Assembly (NCBI RefSeq): GCF_000007145.1
Contig: NC_003902.1
Location: 1,717,436-1,749,435, forward strand
Reading direction: 5' to 3'
DNA length: 32,000 nucleotides
Origin: Xanthomonas campestris pv. campestris str. ATCC 33913
GTDB taxonomy: Bacteria; Pseudomonadota; Gammaproteobacteria; Xanthomonadales; Xanthomonadaceae
A program made the position numbers and the translations under genes. Below, in pieces: positions 3,271 to 17,413 of the stretch (position 1 is the first letter of the stretch; the number at the start of each line of letters is the position of its first letter). Under the pieces are notes generated by a model that saw only the letters and a list, made by a program, of their open reading frames with translations, ran no database searches and had not been told where the DNA came from.

Positions 3271-3300
3271 CTTGAACACCTGCGCACCACCCCCACATCT
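3271..3300 (+). promoter_or_regulatory. Sigma32 (RpoH)-like heat-shock promoter upstream of dnaK
   Basis: CTTGAA at 3271-3276, a 14-nt spacer, then CCCCACATCT at 3291-3300. The site lies about 55 nt upstream of the dnaK ATG. Confidence 0.65.
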
Positions 3301-3353
3301 CAGCCAGACCCGGCGTCGCCGGACACAGCTAAAGACTCATCAGGAGCGTATCC

Positions 3354-5282
3354 ATGGGCAAGATCATTGGTATTGACCTCGGCACCACGAACTCGTGCGT
3401 GGCGATCATGGACGGCGGCAAGGCCCGCGTCATCGAAAATTCCGAGGGCGATCGCACCACGCCCTCGATCGTCGCCTACACCAAGGACGGCGAAGTGCTG
3501 GTCGGTGCCTCGGCCAAGCGCCAGGCGGTGACCAACCCGAAGAACACCTTCTACGCGGTGAAGCGCCTGATCGGCCGCAAGTTCACTGACGGCGAAGTGC
3601 AGAAGGACATCTCCCACGTGCCGTACGGCATTCTGGCGCACGACAACGGCGATGCCTGGGTGCAGACCAGCGATTCCAAGCGCATGGCGCCGCAGGAAAT
3701 TTCCGCACGCGTGCTGGAAAAGATGAAGAAGACCGCCGAGGACTTCCTGGGCGAAAAGGTCACCGAAGCGGTGATCACGGTGCCGGCGTACTTCAACGAC
3801 AGCCAGCGCCAGGCCACCAAGGACGCTGGCCGCATCGCCGGTCTGGACGTCAAGCGCATCATCAACGAGCCGACGGCTGCTGCCCTGGCCTATGGCCTGG
3901 ACAAGAACGGCGGTGACCGCAAGATTGCCGTGTACGACCTGGGCGGCGGCACCTTCGACGTGTCGATCATCGAAATTGCCGAGGTCGATGGCGAGAAGCA
4001 GTTCGAAGTGCTGGCCACCAATGGCGACACCTTCCTGGGCGGCGAAGACTTCGACAACCGCGTCATCGAGTATCTGGTCGACGAATTCAACAAGGATCAG
4101 GGCATCGATCTGCGCAAGGATCCGTTGGCGCTGCAGCGCCTCAAGGACGCCGCAGAGCGCGCCAAGATCGAGCTGTCGACCTCGCAGCAGACCGAAGTGA
4201 ACCTGCCGTACGTCACCGCCGATGCCTCGGGCCCGAAGCACCTCAACATCAAGTTGACCCGTGCCAAGCTCGAAGCGCTGGTGGAAGACCTGGTCAAGAA
4301 GTCGATCGAGCCGTGCCGCACCGCGTTGAACGACGCCGGCCTGCGCGCCAGCGACATCAACGAAGTGATCCTGGTCGGCGGTCAGACCCGTATGCCGAAG
4401 GTGCAGCAGGCCGTTGCCGATTTCTTCGGCAAGGAACCGCGCAAGGACGTCAACCCGGACGAAGCCGTGGCCGTGGGCGCCGCGATCCAGGGCGGCGTGC
4501 TGGCTGGCGACGTCAAGGACGTGCTGCTGCTGGACGTGACCCCGCTGTCGCTGGGTATCGAAACCATGGGCGGCGTGTTCACCAAGATCATCGAAAAGAA
4601 CACCACCATCCCGACCAAGGCCTCGCAGACCTTCTCCACTGCCGAAGACAACCAGTCGGCCGTGACCGTGCACGTGCTGCAGGGTGAGCGCGAGCAGGCC
4701 CGCTTCAACAAGTCGCTGGCCAAGTTCGACCTCTCCGGCATCGAGCCGGCGCCGCGTGGCATGCCGCAGGTGGAAGTGTCCTTCGACATCGACGCCAACG
4801 GCATCCTGCACGTGTCGGCCAAGGACAAGAAGACCAACAAGGAACAGAAGGTCGAGATCAAGGCCGGTTCGGGCCTGTCGGATGAAGAGATCCAGCGCAT
4901 GGTCGCCGACGCGGAAGCCAACCGCGAAGAAGACAAGAAGTTCCAGGAGCTGGTGCAGACCCGCAACCAGGCCGATGGCTTGATCCACGCCACCCGCACC
5001 GCGATCACCGAGCATGGCAGCAAGGTGGGTGGCGATGTGATCGGCAAGGTGGAAGCGGCCCTGGCCGACCTGGAAACCGCCATGAAGGGCGACGACAAGG
5101 CGCAGATCGAAGCGCGCAGCAAGACCCTGGAAGAAGCCGGCCAGTCGCTGTACGCCGCGGCCGCCGCGGCAGAGCAGGGCGGCAACGCCGATGCGGCCAG
5201 CGGCAATGCGCAGGCCTCCAAGGCCGCCGATGACGTGGTGGACGCCGAGTTCACCGAGGTCAAGGACGATAAGAAGGCGTGA
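3354..5282 (+). CDS. dnaK: Molecular chaperone DnaK (Hsp70)
   Basis: The 642-aa ORF starts [17 protein letters not shown]. It contains [10 protein letters not shown] and [11 protein letters not shown], which are Hsp70 signatures, and it has full-length collinearity with DnaK. Confidence 0.98.
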
Positions 5283-8958: not shown

Positions 8959-9223
8959 GTCTTTCGAGTCATCGTCATGCACCGGAGTATGCAAGACCTG
9001 ACTCATCAGCGGCAGCGATGTAGTCATAGGCCTCGCGTCTGCCCACGCCTGTTCCGCATCACGGGTAGGCAGGCTTCAAGGTGCTTTGCTTCTGTCAATC
9101 GAGTGGCCTCGGGACGCACCACATCTGCGGGAGCAACGCAGTGGCAAGTGGAAACGCACTCGCCTGCTAAGTAATTCGAACGACTGTGAAAGCGACCCCG
9201 AGCACTGGCGCTGACGCATGGCA

Positions 9224-9272
9224 GATTCATCCACACAGGGTGTGGATGAATCCTGGACAAGCATGTGGATAA
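9224..9272. promoter_or_regulatory. Cluster of three DnaA-box-like 9-mers, including a 13-bp perfect palindrome
   Basis: GATTCATCCACAC (9224-9236) and GTGTGGATGAATC (9240-9252) are perfect reverse complements with a 3-nt spacer. Each arm contains TCATCCACA, which matches the DnaA box TTATCCACA at 8 of 9 positions. TGTGGATAA at 9264-9272 is a perfect box on the opposite strand. Confidence 0.4.
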
Positions 9273-9335
9273 CTCGCATCAGCCCTTGCCGCGCAACGGC
9301 CGGGTTTGCCATGGTCAAAAAATGACCAGCTGGCG

Positions 9336-9533
9336 TTATGCCGCTTGCAGGCTCAGTTCGCCGCCGCTGGTGACGAAGCGTTGGCCCTGCCGCAGCAGAT
9401 GGCGACCGTCGGGGAGCTCATAGCGTGGTGTCGCGTGTGTCTGCGCGCGCCCCTGCGGTTGGTCGTCGCGGAACTCGATGATCACGTAGGGCTCGCCGTC
9501 TGCACCGACGGCTGGAAATTGCCGAAAAGACAT
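9336..9533 (-). CDS. Hypothetical small protein (65 aa)
   Basis: ORF 9336-9554, with the start moved to the ATG at 9533. That ATG is preceded by GAGGAGG with a 6-nt spacer (GAGGAGGTGCGAGATG on the minus strand). By my count about 72% of third codon positions are G or C. I recognise no homolog. The product is MSFRQFPAVGADGEPYVIIEFRDDQPQGRAQTHATPRYELPDGRHLLRQGQRFVTSGGELSLQAA. Confidence 0.45.
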   Translation of the reverse strand: MSFRQFPAVGADGEPYVIIEFRDDQPQGRAQTHATPRYELPDGRHLLRQGQRFVTSGGELSLQAA

Positions 9534-9803
9534 CTCGCACCTCCTCAGTTTCAAGGTTGCAATGCGACCGTCAACGATCGCGCGACCGGCGCTGTTGCCG
9601 GTGTCGCGAGCATGCGCAGCGCCGTGTTACCGATGCGTCGTCAAGCGATGAAGCACACAATGACGGCGCCGGTTGTGGCTGCTTTTTAGCTTCTCGCGCT
9701 ACGCGCGCGACACTTCGAGGGCATGGCAGTGGTGCGTTGCACGCTGCCCAGCGGCGGGCCTGTTGGGCTGGATGCACGGACATCCGGCCAGCGCCAGCGT
9801 GCG

Positions 9804-11207
9804 CTACTGGCGCAGCATCAAAGCGTCACGGTCCGCGGTGGCGGCGGCCAGTTCGGCACGTGCGGAGGCGATCCGCGCCTGTGCATCGATCAGCCGTACG
9901 CGGGCATCGTTGGCAGTTTCTTCGCGTTGATTGACGAGAAAAAAGTCGCCCGAGCCCAGTTCAAAACGGCGCCGCTCCGCCGCAGCGAGCCGGTCTGCCA
10001 GGCTGCGCTCCTCATCGGCGATGCCGGCCAGTCGCTGGGCGGCATTGAGCGAGATGACGATGGATTCCACTTCCACCGAAATCTGGTCGCGCAGGAAGCG
10101 ACTGCGTTGATCCAGCGCCTCGATCTCCGCGCGTGCCTCGGCCACGCGGCCTTTGGCGGAACGATTTTCCAGCGGCACGCTGAAACGGAAGCCGATGATC
10201 GCATCGGTCGGCGAACGGTTTGGGCCACCCACGCCGGGCGCGCCCAGATCCTTGCTGACCTCGAAACTCACGTCCAGGCGTGGCTTCAGATCGTTCTGCG
10301 CCAGCATCAGGCGGGCGGTGGCCTGATCGATGCGGGTCAGCACGGCGCGGTAATCGGGGCGTTCCACCGGCGCGGTGATCTTGCTGGCGCCGGCCAGACC
10401 TTCGAGCGCGGAGGCGTCGGCGGGCAGCCGCTCGGCGGACACGATCAGCGGCATGCCGGCGTCGTCGCGCAGATACAAGGACAACGCATTGGCCGCATTG
10501 GCGAAGTCCTGCTCCGAGCGCACCACAAGCGCGCGGCGGCGCACCAGGTTCTGGTCGTTTTCGGTCAACAGAATGGTTGGCCGTGCGCCGAGCGTCACCT
10601 GCCGGGAAATGGCGTTGCGGCGGCGTTCGGCCAGCTCCAGCAGGTCCTTGTAGGCCCGCAGCTTCAGCCCGGCCGCGACCCAGCTCTGGTAGGCATCCAC
10701 CGCGCGGCGCTGCACGCCAATCGCCACCATCTCCGCTTCGTACTGCGCCACGTCGATGTCGCCGCTGGCCACGCTGCGACGGGTGCGGCGCTCATCCACC
10801 ACGCGGTCGCGCAGCAGCGCATACAGCGCACCGACTTTCACTTCGCCGCCGCGGTCGGTGTAGGACTTGTCTTCGTAGACCGGAAACGACCCGCGCGAGG
10901 ACCGGTACCCGCCGTAGTAGTAGCCGCCGTTTTCCTCGAAGGGCCGCTTGACCGTGCTCTCGATCGAACTGCCGTCGTAATAGCCGGCCTCGCGCGAGCG
11001 GCCATCTATATCGAACACCGTATCGAACGCGCCATTGGCCGATAGCCCCTTGCCTTCGGCCTGGCGCACCTTGGCCAGCGATTCGACGATTTGCGGCGCC
11101 GAGCGGGCAGAGGACTGCAACACCTCGTCCAGGGTCAGGGCAGCGGTCTGGGCGAATGCCGCTCCGGGGCAGAGTGCGATCAACAGGGCAACAAAACGGT
11201 GCATCAT
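9804..11207 (-). CDS. TolC-family outer membrane efflux/secretion protein (OMF)
   Basis: The 467-aa ORF has the signal peptide MMHRFVALLIALCPGAAFA-Q. It contains two tandem coiled-coil/beta-barrel repeats typical of the TolC/OEP family. Its ATG overlaps the stop of the upstream MFP gene (ATGA at 11207-11204). Confidence 0.85.
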   Translation of the reverse strand: MMHRFVALLIALCPGAAFAQTAALTLDEVLQSSARSAPQIVESLAKVRQAEGKGLSANGAFDTVFDIDGRSREAGYYDGSSIESTVKRPFEENGGYYYGGYRSSRGSFPVYEDKSYTDRGGEVKVGALYALLRDRVVDERRTRRSVASGDIDVAQYEAEMVAIGVQRRAVDAYQSWVAAGLKLRAYKDLLELAERRRNAISRQVTLGARPTILLTENDQNLVRRRALVVRSEQDFANAANALSLYLRDDAGMPLIVSAERLPADASALEGLAGASKITAPVERPDYRAVLTRIDQATARLMLAQNDLKPRLDVSFEVSKDLGAPGVGGPNRSPTDAIIGFRFSVPLENRSAKGRVAEARAEIEALDQRSRFLRDQISVEVESIVISLNAAQRLAGIADEERSLADRLAAAERRRFELGSGDFFLVNQREETANDARVRLIDAQARIASARAELAAATADRDALMLRQ

Positions 11208-12289
11208 TTCTTGCCCGTCGCGTCGTCTTCGGCCTTGTACGCCGCCGGCTTGGCCTTGCCGTCATCCTGCTGCGTGGCCGTCGGGCGGCGGTCGAATTCC
11301 AGCGGGAAGTTGTTGAGTTGGCGCCACAGTTCGTAGCCGACCCGCACGGTTTCGCCCTGCACCCAGCCGCGCACCTTGCCGCCCTGGCGCGCGAATTCCT
11401 GCGCCGGCCACGCCGGCTTGCCCGGCATGGGTTCGACCAGGATGCGGAACAGTCCGTCGGGCGCTGCGTTGGGGTCGATCGCACGCACGCGGCCATCGAA
11501 CATGCCGTGCGCCACTGACGGCCAGCCGCTGAACTGGATTGCCGGCCAGCCTTCGAACTCCAGCCGCACCGGCCGTCCGGGGCGGATCAATGGCACGTCG
11601 CGGCCGTCGATATACAGCTCGACCGCACGCTCCACGCGCTCGGGCGCGATCACCGCGAGCACCGTGCCCGGCGACACCATCGCGCTGCCGCTGGCGGCGT
11701 TGAGCTGTTGCACGCGGCCGTCGCGCGGCGCACGCACCAACTGCGCAGACTGGCGATTCAACTGGATGTCGATCCGGGTCAACTTGGCGCGCGACTCGGC
11801 CAGCTTGGCATCGGCTTCGGCCACCTTGATCTGGGTCAGCTCGTAGTCACGGCGCCCGGCCAGGCCTTCGGCCAGCAATTGCCGGCTGCGCTCCACATCG
11901 ATGCCGGCCACCGCGCGTGATTGCTGGATGGCGGCGATCTCGGCCTGCACCTGCGCCCGTTCGCTGGCCAGGCGGGTCAGCAGGTCCGGGTCCAGATCGC
12001 CGACGCGCGCGATCGGGTCGCCACGCGAGACATGCTGGCCGTCGTGCACGTACCACGTCTCGACACGGCCGGGAACGAAGGCGGTGACCTGCTGCTGGCG
12101 ATCGCCCGGGTCCAGCGAGACCACCTGTCCCTTGCCGCTGGCGGTCTGCACCCACGGTGCCAGCGCCAGGATCGCCGCGGCAATGGCCACGCCGATCAGC
12201 AGCATCCAGGCCAGTGCCTTGGCGATGCTGGGCGGCCGCATCGCCGCCAGGGTTGGGAAGTGCGCGTTGCGATCAGCGGCCTGGCGCAT
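11204..12289 (-). CDS. HlyD-family membrane fusion protein (periplasmic adaptor)
   Basis: The 361-aa ORF has an N-terminal TM helix (ALAWMLLIGVAIAAAILALAPWV). It has a biotinyl/lipoyl-like hairpin (PGRVETWYVHDGQHVSRGDPIARV), a short coiled coil, and a beta-barrel domain (GMFDGRVRAIDPNA). A strong SD (AGGAGG) sits 6 nt before the ATG at 12289. The gene overlaps the ABC gene by 17 nt. Confidence 0.85.
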   Translation of the reverse strand: MRQAADRNAHFPTLAAMRPPSIAKALAWMLLIGVAIAAAILALAPWVQTASGKGQVVSLDPGDRQQQVTAFVPGRVETWYVHDGQHVSRGDPIARVGDLDPDLLTRLASERAQVQAEIAAIQQSRAVAGIDVERSRQLLAEGLAGRRDYELTQIKVAEADAKLAESRAKLTRIDIQLNRQSAQLVRAPRDGRVQQLNAASGSAMVSPGTVLAVIAPERVERAVELYIDGRDVPLIRPGRPVRLEFEGWPAIQFSGWPSVAHGMFDGRVRAIDPNAAPDGLFRILVEPMPGKPAWPAQEFARQGGKVRGWVQGETVRVGYELWRQLNNFPLEFDRRPTATQQDDGKAKPAAYKAEDDATGKK

Positions 12290-13964
12290 CGTCTGCCTCC
12301 TGCATGGATGCGATCAGGGCATCGCGCGTGGCGTAGCGCTGCTGCTGTCCGGGTTGCAGGCGGAACCAGCCGTCCAGGGTGATGTCCTCCGGCCGGCCGG
12401 TGCACAACAAGGCGGTGGTGCCGGTGGCTTTCAAACGACGCAGGATCTTGGTCAGGCGTTCGGCCGGAATCAGGTCGTACAGCTGCGACAGCATCAGCAC
12501 ACGCGGTTGCACCAGCAGCGCGTTGGCCAGCTTCAGCGCCATCACCTCGCCGATCCACAACGGGTAGCCGGAGGCGGCCAGACGCGTGTCCAGCCCCTTG
12601 GGAAGCGAGGCAATGCGGCTGCGCAAGCCCACCGCGTCGATGGCTTCCAGCATCGCTTCGGAGCTCACATCACTGGAGGCCAGCGCCAGGTATTCGCGAA
12701 TGGTGACCTCCACGATAGTGGGGCGGTCGAGCACGGTGACTTCCGAACGCAGCAGATACATGTCGAAGGTGGCCATGTCGGCGCCGCCCACCATCGCCAG
12801 CCCGCGGTCGGGCACCACGTGCCGTTTCAACACCATGGCCAGCAGCCGCTCGGCACCGCCATCGGCCAGCGTCACCAGCTGTTCGCCGGCGGCCAGCGAA
12901 AAGTCGAACCGCGCGCCATCGATCACCACCCCATCCAAGCGGACCGCGCTGTTGCCCGGGGTCTTGCCCGGCGCCACCACGGCGCGTTCCTGCGGAATCG
13001 CGAACAGCAACGAAAGTTCCTCGGAGCTGGCGACCAGGTCGTAGAGCGCATCCAGGTAGGTGCCTAGCTGGGAGATACCGTAGAACACCGCGCTCAGGAT
13101 CAGCTCGGCCGCCACCAGCTGGCCGATCGACAACTCACCGCGCAGGATCAGGTTGCCGCCCAGTGCCAGCAACGCGGCGCTGGCCACCGCGTAGACCAGC
13201 AGGAAGGAGGCGGTCTGGGTGAAGCTGTAGCTGAAGTGGCGCCGATGCCGATCGATGTAGGCGGCCGTGACCGCCTCGGAGCGATCCATTGCGAAATCGA
13301 GATGGCGGCTGGACTTGTAGAACCCGTTGGAGCCGCCGACGCTTTCCAGCCAGCGTGCTGCCTCGTGCTTGGCGTGGCTCAGATCCACCGCGGTGCGGAT
13401 CGACCCGCGCGACCAGATCATCCAGATGCTGAAGATCACCAGCAGCAGCAAGGCGTTGAAGCCCAGGAAAAACGGGTGGTAGAAGCTGGTGACGATCAGC
13501 CCCACCGCCGACTGCAGCACGATGGTGAACGCACCGATGGCCAGACTCGGCACGGCCTTCTGCACCACCACCAGATCGAAGTAGCGGTTGAACATGTCGC
13601 CGCGGTTCTGGTCGGCGAAGAACGGGTTTTGCGCATGCACGGCGCGCACCGTGATCTCGGCCACCACGCGTGCGAACAAGCGGCGTTCGAACAGCGCCAT
13701 GACCCACACCCGCATCGCGCTCAGGCCGGCGACCAGCAGCAACAGGCCGAGCAACAATACCGACAAGGTCCATAGCGGCGTGGGCAGCGCGGTGTTGGCC
13801 ACGCTGTTGATCAGCAACTGCACCGAGATTGGCGTGGCCAGCGACAACAGACTGATCGCCACGCCGTAGACGATGGCCAGACGCACATAGGGCATGTCCG
13901 GCCCGACGATCTCCGCCAGCCAGCTTGCCGCTTCCCGCCATCCGATCTGTTTGCCCGCCGCCAT
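12273..13964 (-). CDS. ABC exporter-like protein (TMD-NBD half transporter) with a degenerate, probably non-catalytic nucleotide-binding domain
   Basis: The 563-aa ORF has an N-terminal six-helix type-I exporter TMD. The C-terminal domain is collinear with HlyB/MsbA NBDs. Walker A reads LADGGAERLL, the signature reads PLWIGE, Walker B reads VLMLSQ, and the H-loop reads LLCTGR. It is the first gene of the ABC-MFP-OMF operon. Confidence 0.85.
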   Translation of the reverse strand: MAAGKQIGWREAASWLAEIVGPDMPYVRLAIVYGVAISLLSLATPISVQLLINSVANTALPTPLWTLSVLLLGLLLLVAGLSAMRVWVMALFERRLFARVVAEITVRAVHAQNPFFADQNRGDMFNRYFDLVVVQKAVPSLAIGAFTIVLQSAVGLIVTSFYHPFFLGFNALLLLVIFSIWMIWSRGSIRTAVDLSHAKHEAARWLESVGGSNGFYKSSRHLDFAMDRSEAVTAAYIDRHRRHFSYSFTQTASFLLVYAVASAALLALGGNLILRGELSIGQLVAAELILSAVFYGISQLGTYLDALYDLVASSEELSLLFAIPQERAVVAPGKTPGNSAVRLDGVVIDGARFDFSLAAGEQLVTLADGGAERLLAMVLKRHVVPDRGLAMVGGADMATFDMYLLRSEVTVLDRPTIVEVTIREYLALASSDVSSEAMLEAIDAVGLRSRIASLPKGLDTRLAASGYPLWIGEVMALKLANALLVQPRVLMLSQLYDLIPAERLTKILRRLKATGTTALLCTGRPEDITLDGWFRLQPGQQQRYATRDALIASMQEADDAPGR

Positions 13965-14036
13965 TGCACTTCCGCTGATGAGTTCAGTGCAGCATTGACG
14001 AGTTCGTGCTTACGAACAAGGCCGGCGAGCTTATTT

Positions 14037-14061
14037 GCCGCATAGGATTTTCCTATGCGGC
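14037..14061. promoter_or_regulatory. 10-bp perfect inverted repeat containing an ATAG-N7-CTAT (T-N11-A) LysR-type box; alternatively a hairpin terminator for the LysR gene
   Basis: The sequence is GCCGCATAGG-ATTTT-CCTATGCGGC. It overlaps the LysR stop codon (TAG, 14055-14053). It lies about 75 bp upstream of the ABC start at 13964. Confidence 0.35.
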
Positions 14062-14952
14062 GGCGGCACGCAGCAATTCGGCGATAAGCCCGAACGCCGG
14101 CGCACGGCCGGCACCTTGTCGCCAGAGCAGGCCGATGTCGCGGTAATAGCGCCCACCCTTGACCGGCCGTACCACCACATCGTCGCCCTCGCGGATCTCC
14201 TGGCGCACGTACAGATCCGGCAGCAGCGCCAGGCCCATGCCCATGCCGGCCATCTGCCGGATCGCATCCAGACTGGTCCCTTCGTAATCGCGCAGCACGT
14301 TGGCGCCGACTTCCGCCGCAATCGCGGCCACCTGCTCGGCCAGGCGATATTCCGGCATCAGCGTCAGCAAGCTGGTGCCGCGCAAATCGGCGGGGGTGAT
14401 GCAGGCCTTGGTCCGCAGCGGATGGTCGGCGGCCATGGTCACGTGCAACGGTTCGCGGAACAGGCGTTCGCTGTGCAGGCCGCGCCCGGCCACCGGCAAC
14501 TGCGCCAGGATCACGTCGTGCACGCCAGTGGCCAGGTCGCTGGCCAGCACTGTTGGCAATCCTTCGCGCACATGCACGCGCAGCGCCGGATGCTCCCGGT
14601 GCAGCCGCGCCACCAGGCTGGGCATCAGGTACGCGCCCAGCGTGGGCGACACGCCGAGCCGGATGGTGCCGATCAGCGAATCTGCCGAGGTGGCGCGCAC
14701 GTCTTCCAGGTCGGCCAGATCGAGCAGGATGCTGCGTGCACGCGCCAGCAGTTCGCGCCCCAATGGGGTAAGGATCGCCGGCCCGCCGCGTTCGAACAAC
14801 GGCGCGCCGATGATGGTTTCCAGTCCCCGGATCTGCTGCGACAGCGAGGGTTGCGAAACGCCCATCTGCTCGGCGGCACGGGTGAAGCTGCCGGTGTCTG
14901 CCAGCGCGACGAAATAACTGAGTTGGCGGATGGTGGTTCTGGGGCGGGGCAT
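14053..14952 (-). CDS. LysR-family transcriptional regulator
   Basis: The 299-aa ORF has an N-terminal HTH (IRQLSYFVALADTGSFTRAAEQMGVSQPSLSQQIRGLE). The C-terminal region is a LysR substrate-binding domain. Confidence 0.9.
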   Translation of the reverse strand: MPRPRTTIRQLSYFVALADTGSFTRAAEQMGVSQPSLSQQIRGLETIIGAPLFERGGPAILTPLGRELLARARSILLDLADLEDVRATSADSLIGTIRLGVSPTLGAYLMPSLVARLHREHPALRVHVREGLPTVLASDLATGVHDVILAQLPVAGRGLHSERLFREPLHVTMAADHPLRTKACITPADLRGTSLLTLMPEYRLAEQVAAIAAEVGANVLRDYEGTSLDAIRQMAGMGMGLALLPDLYVRQEIREGDDVVVRPVKGGRYYRDIGLLWRQGAGRAPAFGLIAELLRAAAA

Positions 14953-15026
14953 GGGTCAGCTCCTGGCCTCAGCGCGTGCGGGCGTGCATGCCGAGGTGGC
15001 CGTACGCGCGTGCCGCGTGATTGCAG

Positions 15027-15057
15027 CGATCAGTGAGCGTGTGGCGGTCACTGATCG
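15027..15057 (-). terminator. Hairpin at the 3' end of the ABCB-type exporter gene (possible terminator, no clear U-tract)
   Basis: The stem is CGATCAGTGA (15027-15036) / TCACTGATCG (15048-15057), 10 bp, with an 11-nt loop. It includes the stop codon at 15050-15048. Confidence 0.3.
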
Positions 15058-16814
15058 ATGAACTGCAGCTTCGCCAACTCCGCGTACAGCCCGCCTTCGG
15101 CCACCAGTTGTGCATGCGTGCCCTGCGCCACGATGCGGCCGGCGTCCATCACCACAATGCGATCTGCCTTGAGCACCGTTGCCAGGCGATGCGCGATGAC
15201 CAGCGTGGTGCGGCCCTGCATCAAGCGGTCCAGCGCCTGCTGCACCGCGCGCTCGCTTTGTGCATCCAGCGCACTGGTGGCCTCGTCCAGCAACAGGATC
15301 GGAGCATCCTTGAGCAGCGCCCGTGCGATTGCCACGCGCTGCTGCTGGCCGCCGGACAGGCGCGTGCCGCGCTCGCCCAGTTCGCTGGCATAGCCCTGCG
15401 GCAATGCGCGCAAGAAGATGTCGGCCTCGGCAGCCGTGGCGGCGGCTTCCACCTGCGCGTCGCTGGCGTCCAGGCGGCCATACCGGATGTTGTCGGCGGC
15501 ACTGGCGGCGAACAAGGTCGGCTGCTGCGGGACTAGTGCGATCTGCTCGCGCAGCAGCACTGGATCGGTCTGGCGCAGATCTACGTCATCGATCCGCACG
15601 CTGCCGCTCAGCGGGTCGTGGAAGCGCAACAGCATCGCCAGCACCGTGCTCTTGCCGGCGCCGGAGGGGCCGACCAGCGCCACGGTTTCGCCCGGCTGCA
15701 CATGCAGGTCGAAGCCATCCAGCGCCGGCATGTCCGGGCGCTGCGGGTAGTGGAAGACCACCTGGTCGAAATGGATCGCGCCACGCACCGGCACCGGCAA
15801 CGGCTGCGGGGTCGCGGGCGCGACAATTGCCGACTGCTCGTCGAGCAACTCGCCGATCCGCCCCATGCCACCGGCAGCGCGTTGCAGCTCGTTCCATACT
15901 TCGGCCAGCGCACCCACCGAACCACCGCCAATCAGTGCATACAGCACGAACTGGCCCAGCGTGCCCGGCGTCATCTGCCCGGCGATGACATCGTGCGCGC
16001 CCAACCACAGCACCGCGACGATGGCCCCGAAGATCAGCATGATCGCCACTGCGGTGACGGTGGCCTGGGTGCGGATGCGTACGCGCGCGGTCCCGATGGC
16101 TGCCTGCAAGGCCTGGCTGAAGCGGTTGCTCTCGTAGCCCTCGCGCGCATGTGCCTGCACCGTGCGCACCGCCCCTAGTGTTTCGGCGGCAAGCGTGTTG
16201 GCATCGGCCACGCGGTCCTGGCTGGCCCGCGAGATCTTCTGCAGGCGTCGCGCGCCGAGCACGATCGGCAGCACCGCCAGCGGAATGCCGATCAAGGTGA
16301 AGCCGGCCAGCCGCGGGCTGGTGACGAACAGCATCACCAGGCTGCCGATCACCGTGACCGAACTGCGCAAGGCCACCGACATGGTGGTGCCGACCACGCC
16401 GCGCAGCAGTTCGCTGTCGGCCGATAGGCGCGACACCAGCTCGCCACTGCGGCTGCGATCGTGGAAGCCGGCATCCAGGCCAATCAGATGGGCATACAGG
16501 CGGCCGCGCAGATCGGCGACCACTTTTTCGCCCAGCAGCGCCACGAAATAAAAGCGCGCCGCCGTGGCCAGCGCCAGCACCACCGCCACTGCAAACAGCA
16601 GCGCGAAGGCCTGGTTGATCTGCGTTCCGCCGGAGAAGCCGTGGTCGATCATGCGCTTGACCGCAGCCGGCAGGCTCAGCGTGGCCGCCGAGGAGACCGC
16701 CAATGCGACCAGCCAGGCCGCGAACAGGCCGCGCTGGCGCTGCACGAAGGGCCACAGGGTGCGCAGGTTGCCAAGCTTGCGGAGTGGGGCAGGCTTGGCG
16801 GGGGGCTGGCTCAT
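15048..16814 (-). CDS. ABC transporter permease/ATP-binding protein (ABCB/MsbA-like exporter)
   Basis: ORF 15048-17261. The start is moved to the ATG at 16814 (MSQPPAKPAPLRKLGNLRTLWPF...), which overlaps the yigZ-like stop (ATGA). All NBD motifs are intact: GPSGAGKST, LSGGQQQRVAIARALL, ILLLDEATSALD and VIAHRL. Confidence 0.9.
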   Translation of the reverse strand: MSQPPAKPAPLRKLGNLRTLWPFVQRQRGLFAAWLVALAVSSAATLSLPAAVKRMIDHGFSGGTQINQAFALLFAVAVVLALATAARFYFVALLGEKVVADLRGRLYAHLIGLDAGFHDRSRSGELVSRLSADSELLRGVVGTTMSVALRSSVTVIGSLVMLFVTSPRLAGFTLIGIPLAVLPIVLGARRLQKISRASQDRVADANTLAAETLGAVRTVQAHAREGYESNRFSQALQAAIGTARVRIRTQATVTAVAIMLIFGAIVAVLWLGAHDVIAGQMTPGTLGQFVLYALIGGGSVGALAEVWNELQRAAGGMGRIGELLDEQSAIVAPATPQPLPVPVRGAIHFDQVVFHYPQRPDMPALDGFDLHVQPGETVALVGPSGAGKSTVLAMLLRFHDPLSGSVRIDDVDLRQTDPVLLREQIALVPQQPTLFAASAADNIRYGRLDASDAQVEAAATAAEADIFLRALPQGYASELGERGTRLSGGQQQRVAIARALLKDAPILLLDEATSALDAQSERAVQQALDRLMQGRTTLVIAHRLATVLKADRIVVMDAGRIVAQGTHAQLVAEGGLYAELAKLQFIDQ

Positions 16815-17413
16815 GCGGCTTCCGGTGTTGAGAGATGGACCCTGTTGCGAGTGGCGTCGCACAGGCGGGTTTTCAAGCCGGCGAGCTGATCCGCGGCCAC
16901 TTGCACGCGCAATGCGGCGCCCTCGGTGTCGAATTGCTCGTCCAGCTTGTCGGCGTGGAAGGTCGATAGCGCGGCATGGACCACGCCCAGGTCGTCGAAC
17001 GGGCAGCGCAGGGCCAGCAGCGACATCGTCACCAGTGGCCGGCGCATGGCCAGCCGCAGGCATTCGGCGGCCGTACCGCCGTACGCGCGCACCAGGCCGC
17101 CGGCGCCGAGCTTGATGCCGCCATACCAGCGCGTCACCACCACCACGACGCGGTCGTAGCCCTGGCCATCGATCGCAGCTAGGATCGGCCGGCCAGCGGT
17201 GCCGCTGGGTTCGCCGTCGTCGCTGGAGCGGTATTCCTGCCCGTAGCGGTAGGCCCAGCAATTGTGCGTGGCATCCACGGCCGCAAAGCGCCGCACCTGC
17301 TCCAGTGCCTGCTCGGGCGATGCCAGCGCGCAGGCCTGTGCGACAAAGCGACTGTGCTTGATCTCCAGGCTGTGGTGCGCGTCGGCGGCAAGGGTGTCTG
17401 GCATCGCGTGCAT
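16811..17413 (-). CDS. IMPACT/YigZ-family protein (UPF0029)
   Basis: The 200-aa ORF contains LEIKHSRFVAQA, NCWAYRYG, SDDGEPSGTAGRPIL and VVVTRWYGGIKLGAGGLVRAYG. These match the YigZ/IMPACT N-terminal domain. An alternative start is the ATG at 17404. Confidence 0.8.
   Translation of the reverse strand: MHAMPDTLAADAHHSLEIKHSRFVAQACALASPEQALEQVRRFAAVDATHNCWAYRYGQEYRSSDDGEPSGTAGRPILAAIDGQGYDRVVVVVTRWYGGIKLGAGGLVRAYGGTAAECLRLAMRRPLVTMSLLALRCPFDDLGVVHAALSTFHADKLDEQFDTEGAALRVQVAADQLAGLKTRLCDATRNRVHLSTPEAA

Follow-up and report, generated by a model that had tools for sequence, protein, structure and literature searches.

A 32,000-nucleotide (nt) stretch of Xanthomonas campestris pv. campestris str. 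ATCC 33913 (NC_003902.1, positions 1,717,436-1,749,435; the whole stretch is referred to here as the window) encodes a putative tripartite exporter on its reverse strand. Its inner-membrane component is built like an ATP-binding cassette (ABC) exporter, from which the motifs for ATP binding and hydrolysis have been lost. This component is a 563-aa protein (12273..13964), identified from its open reading frame (ORF), profile matches, alignments and predicted structure. It consists of a transmembrane domain (TMD) with six long helices of the type IV exporter kind (approximately residues 1-325, 12990..13964) and a domain shaped like a nucleotide-binding domain (NBD; approximately residues 336-545, 12330..12959), in which all nucleotide-contacting motifs are replaced. 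Downstream lie genes for a short membrane fusion protein (MFP), or periplasmic adaptor, of 361 aa (11204..12289) and for a TolC-family outer-membrane factor (OMF) of 467 aa (9804..11207). Upstream, and also on the reverse strand, are a candidate operator (14029..14056) and the gene for a LysR-type regulator of the OxyR subfamily (14053..14952; Pfam HTH_1 and LysR_substrate).

The adaptor has an N-terminal transmembrane (TM) helix, a lipoyl domain, a short hairpin and a β-barrel, and matches Pfam HlyD_3, Biotin_lipoyl_2 and HlyD_D23. Its best NCBIfam scores, 79.7 bits for RND_mfp and 76.5 bits for type_I_hlyD (TIGR01843, cut-off 208.65), are both under the respective cut-offs. The OMF carries a signal peptide and two OEP repeats (Pfam OEP, 105.8 bits over two stretches). 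An earlier note, made on this DNA from its letters and ORFs, had described the junctions correctly: the ABC-like ORF shares 17 nt with the MFP gene, whose AGGAGG Shine-Dalgarno sequence (12296..12301, reverse strand) is contained in the 3'-terminal part of the ABC-like gene and precedes the MFP ATG by 6 nt, and the MFP and OMF genes overlap by ATGA. These start/stop overlaps and the internal AGGAGG indicate translational coupling, as judged from the sequence. A promoter and terminator consensus scan of 9200-15100 gave nothing useful.

Loss of the ATPase motifs and retention of the exporter fold

The only Pfam match of the 563-aa protein is ABC_membrane (PF00664), marginal at 29.5 bits against a cut-off of 28. 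No ABC_tran (PF00005) match is found in it even at E<1; in comparison, the intact exporter at 15048-16814, which the earlier note had proposed as an internal control, scores 116 bits, and proteins of the sister clade described below score 50-86 bits. Residues 14-511 can be aligned to positions 128-636 of the NCBIfam HlyB model TIGR01846 with a score of 93 bits (cut-off 725), and two further ABC models of type I secretion systems (T1SS) are likewise far from their thresholds (TIGR01842, 72 bits against 510; TIGR03375, 80 bits against 693).

Motifs were registered by phmmer against ABCB1 and other chains of the PDB and by BLASTP against the neighbouring exporter. Both methods give the same register, and as hhalign agrees, mis-registration is ruled out by three independent alignments. 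Walker A (GPSGAGKS) is replaced by LADGGAER with a one-residue deletion, and the Q-loop VPQQP by VLDRP, with loss of the Gln. The ABC signature LSGGQ has become PLWIGE, Walker B has changed from ILLLDE to VLMLSQ, losing the Asp-Glu pair, the D-loop SALD reads DLIP and the H-loop His is Gly. The LPxGLDTxL segment is kept. The earlier claim that every catalytic motif is gone therefore holds. With the P-, A- and Q-loops, signature, Walker B and H-loop all missing, the protein is predicted to be unable to bind or hydrolyse ATP in the canonical manner. A name such as "ABC transporter ATP-binding protein" is very likely misleading for these proteins, and the thousands of database entries that carry it are very probably wrong.

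A monomer model, built with AlphaFold2 (AF2) on 52 family members, has a mean predicted local distance difference test score (pLDDT) of 92 and a predicted template modelling score (pTM) of 0.85. In the model the TMD comprises six helices of 40-55 residues each, and residues ~340-545 have their strands and helices in the order seen in NBDs, mostly at pLDDT above 90. Foldseek superposes the full-length model on TmrB (6rai_B) and on HlyB (8dck_A) with a TM-score of 0.86 in both cases at no more than 20% identity, and thus the NBD fold appears to have been kept while its chemistry has gone. TM287/288 and TmrAB are also among the top structural matches. The Foldseek search returned no family member from the PDB, the best match being at most 20% identical. 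The monomer model is closest to closed, occluded states (TM-score 0.86, as against 0.72-0.79 for inward-facing ones). The hallmarks of a type IV exporter TMD are present: the marginal PF00664 match, the six helices and a conserved motif in intracellular loop 1 (ICL1). According to the model, the inner-membrane component retains the complete type IV exporter fold, including the coupling-helix motifs and an NBD-shaped domain.

Distribution, gene order and conservation

An exhaustive HMMER search of 1.84 billion representative sequences delimits a superfamily of 1116 clusters (50% identity) at E<=1e-30. Motif columns were read from those of the best 150 matches that reach 530 aa (129 sequences) and separate two groups. 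Members of the short group (~545-590 aa, 59 representatives) resemble the window protein in lacking GK[ST], the Q-loop Gln and the H-loop His; their signature is PLSxxE without Gly-Gly and their Walker B hhhh[T/S/G/N]x. The long group (~700-790 aa) has PF00005 matches and retains the Walker A Lys in 51 of 51 sequences and the Walker B Asp in 48; the catalytic Glu persists in only 16 of the 51, the Q-loop Gln in three and the H-loop His in 11, and the signature reads PLSxGQ. The groups are homologous from end to end (hhalign probability 100, E 1e-131), with GPxGSGKS of the long group facing a non-conserved stretch of the short one. In a neighbour-joining tree, rooted on the MsbA-related exporter of the window and carrying no support values, a single clade contains 53 of the 59 short representatives that lack Walker A, which suggests that the degenerate proteins are essentially monophyletic.

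The long group constitutes the sister clade (proteins P0174-P0269 of alignment A2; loci L005 and L006). Its named members, which belong to Planctomycetes and Myxococcales, carry the annotation peptidase-domain ABC transporter. A sister-clade model shows an N-terminal α/β domain, in which no conserved Cys is found, and has HlyB and PCAT1 as its best full-length structural matches. In about a quarter of sister-clade sequences the TMD is immediately preceded by a linker rich in His (for example DHHHDHDDHHHHG), a composition that hints at metal binding. Since the sister clade keeps Walker A and the Walker B Asp and has mostly lost the Glu, Gln and His, degeneration of the NBD is graded across the superfamily, and the difference in motif retention between the groups places the window protein at the fully degenerate end of a superfamily derived from HlyB/PCAT-like transporters. 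The losses hold across the degenerate clade: the Walker A window lacks GK[ST] in 140 of 143 sequences, the three that have it all resembling the sister clade, and the Walker B Asp and H-loop His occur in six and nine of the 143, respectively.

A relative is encoded in at least 589 species genomes, scanned at one genome per species. The 80 best loci, which were examined in detail, belong to Sphingomonadales, Caulobacterales, Methylobacterium, Hydrogenophaga, Woeseiaceae and several Xanthomonas species; the degenerate clade is mostly one of Sphingomonadales and Caulobacterales, with Xanthomonas in addition. The order ABC-like gene, MFP, OMF is found in 78 of these 80 loci, the other two (both Methylobacterium) having no adjacent OMF gene, and the MFP gene is always immediately downstream of the ABC-like gene in the loci compared. 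Identities of the three proteins to those of the window fall in parallel, from ~90/93/92% to ~46/48/42%. Clade members are also present in metagenomes at identities down to ~27-45%, and the distant ones (34-44% identity) have the identical three-gene set in unrelated surroundings. As a set, the three structural genes are found in several hundred species and also on plasmids.

When the flanking ORFs of 84 loci were clustered all against all, the LysR regulator, together with its shadow ORFs, was the sole recurrent neighbour. No conserved substrate or accessory gene is present in these flanks, although a substrate may be encoded elsewhere. The exporter at 15048-16814 belongs to the MsbA-related family TIGR02204 (869 bits, above the cut-off), and the LysR gene lies between it and the operon. 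Only in Xanthomonas is it found next to the operon; the flanks in Sphingomonas, Novosphingobium, Caulobacter and other genera do not contain it. The earlier suggestion that this nearby half-transporter is the partner of the ABC-like protein thus fails for any partnership conserved across the family. Outside Xanthomonas, no partner transporter ATPase is conserved in cis within the flanks searched (~6 kb at most loci, 8-10 kb at a few); the sole additional ABC ATPase match, in Blastomonas and Hydrogenophaga, is UvrA.

Selection was estimated with the Nei-Gojobori method on the gene taken from 86 loci, as the ratio of non-synonymous to synonymous substitution rates (dN/dS). Values for the TMD and the NBD-like domain are 0.087 and 0.111 among seven Xanthomonas species, 0.084 and 0.186 in one Sphingomonas group (A) and 0.073 and 0.178 in another (B). 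Both domains are therefore under purifying selection; the pseudo-NBD is about two-fold more relaxed than the TMD, yet clearly constrained. ORFs span 540-597 aa and 83 of the 86 pass as intact, the other three being flagged only since the tblastn match overran the stop codon. The inference of a maintained operon, as opposed to a decaying pseudogene, made in the earlier note is borne out by these values, the intact ORFs and the conserved gene order. As a separate observation, the gene in a draft assembly of X. axonopodis DSM 3585 (locus L017, 1251-2926) has a 1-nt deletion in a CTG run and a frameshift at about residue 70, and the LysR match of that strain is also split; this is either a strain-specific loss of the module or a draft-assembly error.

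Position-weighted conservation over the 143 sequences peaks in the TMD. Conserved positions there are P45-ISVQ in TM1, Y162-H163-P164 at the TM3/4 turn, S196, K199, Q250, G281-QLVAAE287 in TM6 and Y308, along with the ICL1 motif FFxxxNRxxLxNRYFD and further motifs in ICL2. The NBD-like domain conserves G388, the LR..V and TI.EYL scaffolds, LPxGLDT, G-PL(S/W)xxE...LKLA, LFD (its Asp497 in 129 of 143) and Arg524 near the former H-loop. The former P-loop segment is variable within the clade, and no part of the domain is less conserved than the pocket of the P- and A-loops. The NBD-NBD interface of canonical ABC proteins is made by the signature and D-loop regions. Glu287 is the single invariant membrane carboxylate of the family; the MsbA-related neighbour has Ala at the equivalent position, and ABCB1 has Phe. 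It is no innovation of the degenerate clade, being also (nearly) invariant in the Walker-A-positive sister clade.

Regulation, transfer and neighbouring genes

The LysR regulator has OxyR as its best NCBIfam match (158.6 bits, under the cut-off of 329) and P. aeruginosa OxyR (4x6g, 142 bits) as its best match in the PDB. The redox-active Cys199 and Cys208 of OxyR correspond to Tyr and Ala. A gene for this regulator is present in 41 of the 84 loci, usually immediately upstream and in either the same or the divergent orientation. Boxes bound by LysR-type transcriptional regulators and by OxyR have the forms T-N11-A and ATAG-N7-CTAT. Both patterns occur in a perfect palindrome, ATAGG-AAAAT-CCTAT (14042-14056), which overlaps the LysR stop codon and is followed 7 nt downstream by a half-site, ATAAGC (14029-14034); the whole element lies ~80-90 nt upstream of the ABC-like start codon. 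ATAGG-N5-CCTAT stands at the same position in 22 of the 24 loci that have an upstream LysR gene on the same strand, in Xanthomonas, Sphingomonas, Novosphingobium and Rhizorhabdus (palindrome loci L001, L007-L013, L016, L018, L030, L037, L039, L045, L047, L048, L050, L055, L061 and L076), and a second half-site, ATA(A/T)G, occurs 6-8 nt downstream of it across loci. Palindrome and half-site are likely the operator of the exporter operon, given their fit to the consensus, and the LysR protein is probably its dedicated regulator.

All four proteins of the module are 74-85% identical between Xanthomonas and leaf-associated Sphingomonas, whereas other Sphingomonas species reach only 51-69% (loci L001, L013, L016 and L076 were compared). 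By identity ranking, the Xanthomonas genes appear to fall within the diversity of Sphingomonadaceae, which points to horizontal transfer of the whole cassette of LysR, ABC-like, MFP and OMF genes (9804-14952) into an ancestor of these Xanthomonas species. The cassette is also carried by 15 Sphingomonadales plasmids of 57 kb-1.8 Mb (plasmid loci include L087 and L088), among them a 90-kb plasmid of S. hankookensis and pNL2 of N. aromaticivorans DSM 12444. Because the module is mobile, on Sphingomonadales plasmids and in plant-pathogenic Xanthomonas, and under the control of a regulator, it may give plant-associated bacteria an adaptive capacity for export or resistance.

Downstream of the OMF gene and on the same strand, a 65-aa ORF (9336-9533, reverse strand) has a GGAGG ribosome-binding site and no Pfam match. 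It was considered as a substrate or a further member of the cassette and rejected, since it is kept only in Xanthomonas (66-80% identity, six loci) and absent from the Sphingomonas loci. Translation of the MsbA-related exporter probably starts at 16814; its ORF can be extended by 149 codons upstream of this start as far as a TTG (15048-17261, reverse strand), and the long form overlaps a YigZ/UPF0029 gene (16811-17413). As the 588-aa version matches TIGR02204 from end to end, the extension is an artefact of ORF calling. Elsewhere in the window, a 571-aa ORF (3300-5015, reverse strand) has a Pfam match to NAD-GH (PF10712; E 8e-229). The opposite strand carries dnaK (3354-5282, forward strand; HSP70, 874 bits), part of an hrcA-grpE-dnaK-dnaJ cluster; the 571-aa ORF corresponds to the shadow ORF known to lie antisense to hsp70 and is unlikely to be a genuine gene.

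Mechanism and comparison with known systems

We propose that the OxyR-like LysR regulator, the ABC homologue with a dead NBD, the adaptor and the TolC-like channel constitute a four-gene module, and we consider it very probable that the ABC homologue is a functional, non-ATPase component of a tripartite exporter. The protein would work as a homodimer, which would have two dead ATP sites since all motifs are lost. Its pseudo-NBD may be kept as a nucleotide-free module for dimerisation and conformational coupling, because the best-conserved elements of the domain are the signature-loop and D-loop regions of the interface. Alternating access of the TMD would be driven by an ion-motive force or a substrate gradient, with Glu287 in TM6 as the candidate coupling or substrate site. 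Of the further options named in the earlier note, we thus prefer energisation by another route to a non-catalytic scaffold. The substrate would be a small molecule, recognised by the LysR regulator and exported via the MFP-OMF duct. How far these proposals can be trusted differs. That the module is a self-contained, inducible tripartite exporter with an ATP-independent component of ABC fold seems to us evenly poised, and that the component is a homodimer driven by an ion gradient falls at or slightly short of this. More tentative is the broader notion of a widespread family in which a full-length ABC exporter has turned ATP-independent, driven by an ion gradient or another non-nucleotide source, as the end point of graded NBD degeneration; its NBD would persist as a mechanical module for dimerisation without nucleotide, and the transporter would power a tripartite MFP-OMF duct.

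Several points weigh against an ion-driven homodimer. Glu287 predates the loss of ATP binding, as it is common to the Walker-A-positive sister clade, and may serve contact with the substrate or the MFP instead of proton coupling. A partner ATPase could be encoded outside the inspected flanks. A cytoplasmic domain of ~230 residues kept under selection could equally well bind a regulatory ligand.

Many ABC exporters are heterodimers in which one ATP site has degenerated (TM287/288 and TmrAB are examples), and the ABC-like protein could be the non-catalytic half of such a pair. Its partner would be a canonical half-transporter that hydrolyses ATP and has its gene elsewhere in the genome; in Xanthomonas this might be the MsbA-related gene, two genes upstream. 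An intact exporter on the same strand (15048-16814) and the retained coupling-helix motifs would fit this arrangement. Known degenerate subunits, however, keep Walker A and an intact LSGGQ that completes the consensus site of the partner, whereas the present family has no Walker A, and its variable signature reads PLSxxE (PLWIGE in the window protein). In addition, the MsbA-related gene adjoins the operon in Xanthomonas only, with no ATPase in cis in the other flanks searched, and the closest named relatives with Walker A occur in phyla other than those of the degenerate clade. We regard heterodimerisation as unlikely. We would place at the same level the proposal that the complex does not pump at all, the ABC-like protein being a static scaffold or gated channel that anchors the MFP-OMF duct as a release valve, tether or sensor. 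No energy-transducing motif is left, and the better fit of the monomer model to closed or occluded states is compatible with this, if weak evidence. The strong conservation of the TMD along its full length, ICL coupling motifs included, and selection on both domains suggest instead a working conformational machine, and a dedicated LysR regulator with its operator is typical of inducible efflux systems.

Repurposing of the NBD-like domain for another ligand (a nucleotide, second messenger or metabolite) that gates or powers transport would explain its dN/dS of 0.11-0.19 and the conservation of the G-PLS-xxE loop, LFD and the Arg near the former H-loop. Yet these conserved elements map to the canonical NBD dimer interface, while conservation is lowest in the old nucleotide pocket and no new pocket-like motif is apparent among the conserved positions, which makes this less likely still than a heterodimer or a scaffold. 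Decay to a pseudogene, or a mis-annotated T1SS remnant, might be thought of in view of the loss of all catalytic motifs and of the frameshift and split LysR match in X. axonopodis DSM 3585. It is ruled out for practical purposes by dN/dS of 0.07-0.19 over the two domains, the intact ORFs in 83 loci and a conserved operon at ~46-90% identity across several orders of Pseudomonadota, to which the start/stop overlaps and the confident AF2 model can be added.

ABC exporters are defined by ATP-driven dimerisation of their NBDs; a family that keeps the architecture and none of the nucleotide chemistry would offer a natural test case for whether ion gradients can drive the type IV ABC fold, debated since the work on LmrA-MD and on proton coupling of MsbA. 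The same holds for roles of NBDs beyond ATP hydrolysis and for the coupling of a tripartite duct to its inner-membrane engine. Our full-text literature searches found no description of a tripartite family with dead NBDs. A genome report on Blastomonas fulva T2 annotates a tripartite pump of the ABC type, 'HlyBD2-OMP2' (1659, 1053 and 1503 bp), with an assumed ATP-driven HlyB; it gives the annotation only and leaves the missing motifs unmentioned (PMC9505733). The gene sizes and the Novosphingobium-like best match fit the family, and 'HlyBD2-OMP2' is, as judged by its description, a probable member; a Blastomonas member was also recovered among our loci (L062). A FUSC-HlyD-TolC operon described in Zymomonas (PMC11989028) was considered as an account of the family and set aside, as that paper concerns FUSC-type and RbbA-type pumps instead.

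The likeness to T1SS of the HlyB, PrtD and LssB kinds lies in the best profiles (TIGR01846, TIGR03375 and TIGR01842), the HlyB-like fold and the gene order, with a TolC-family OMF linked to the ABC-like and MFP genes and collinear in 78 of 80 loci. Unlike T1SS components, the ABC-like and MFP proteins score far under the family cut-offs, and the former has no N-terminal C39 or C39-like domain. The adaptor, at 337-363 aa, is ~100 aa shorter than the 447-458 aa found at two sister-clade loci. Nor is there an RTX or double-glycine substrate nearby. The earlier note had likewise reported neither C39 nor RTX, in agreement with Pfam, which finds no C39 domain in the 563-aa protein, and with a scan of the window for RTX repeats that gave nothing beyond one chance match in a shadow frame. 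Its label of the operon as type I secretion-like stands as a statement of ancestry, through the HlyB/PCAT architecture of the sister clade; nothing points to a protein substrate.

TM287/288, TmrAB and BmrCD, the heterodimeric kind to which the top structural neighbours belong, offer the precedent of proteins that stay functional while NBD motifs degenerate. In these pairs Walker A is present in both subunits, one site is fully canonical and the two genes are adjacent, whereas the present family has no linked partner gene in the flanks searched, no Walker A and no intact signature.

The closest mechanistic analogues, and the model that we favour, may be SbmA/BacA and LmrA-MD, in which an ABC-exporter-like TMD works without ATP through membrane carboxylates. 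SbmA/BacA have ABC-like TMDs driven by protons via conserved glutamates; these SLiPT proteins lack NBDs and coupling helices and are importers that act alone (PMC8442886). LmrA-MD, deprived of its NBD, is a secondary-active proton symporter dependent on the TM6 carboxylate E314 (PMC2704374). The family described here differs from SLiPT in its NBD-like domain, its ICL motifs, its tripartite export operon and its single invariant membrane carboxylate, Glu287, and from LmrA-MD in that the latter is an engineered truncation. In overall organisation it resembles EmrAB-TolC, AaeAB and FUSC-type FuaABC, which combine a non-RND inner-membrane transporter with an MFP and an OMF, often under a dedicated regulator. 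Tripartite pumps driven by the proton motive force often have such regulators, including LysR-type ones, as FuaABC has FuaR. What sets the present family apart from EmrAB, AaeAB and FuaABC is the inner-membrane protein itself, which has the ABC type IV fold in place of an MFS or FUSC one.

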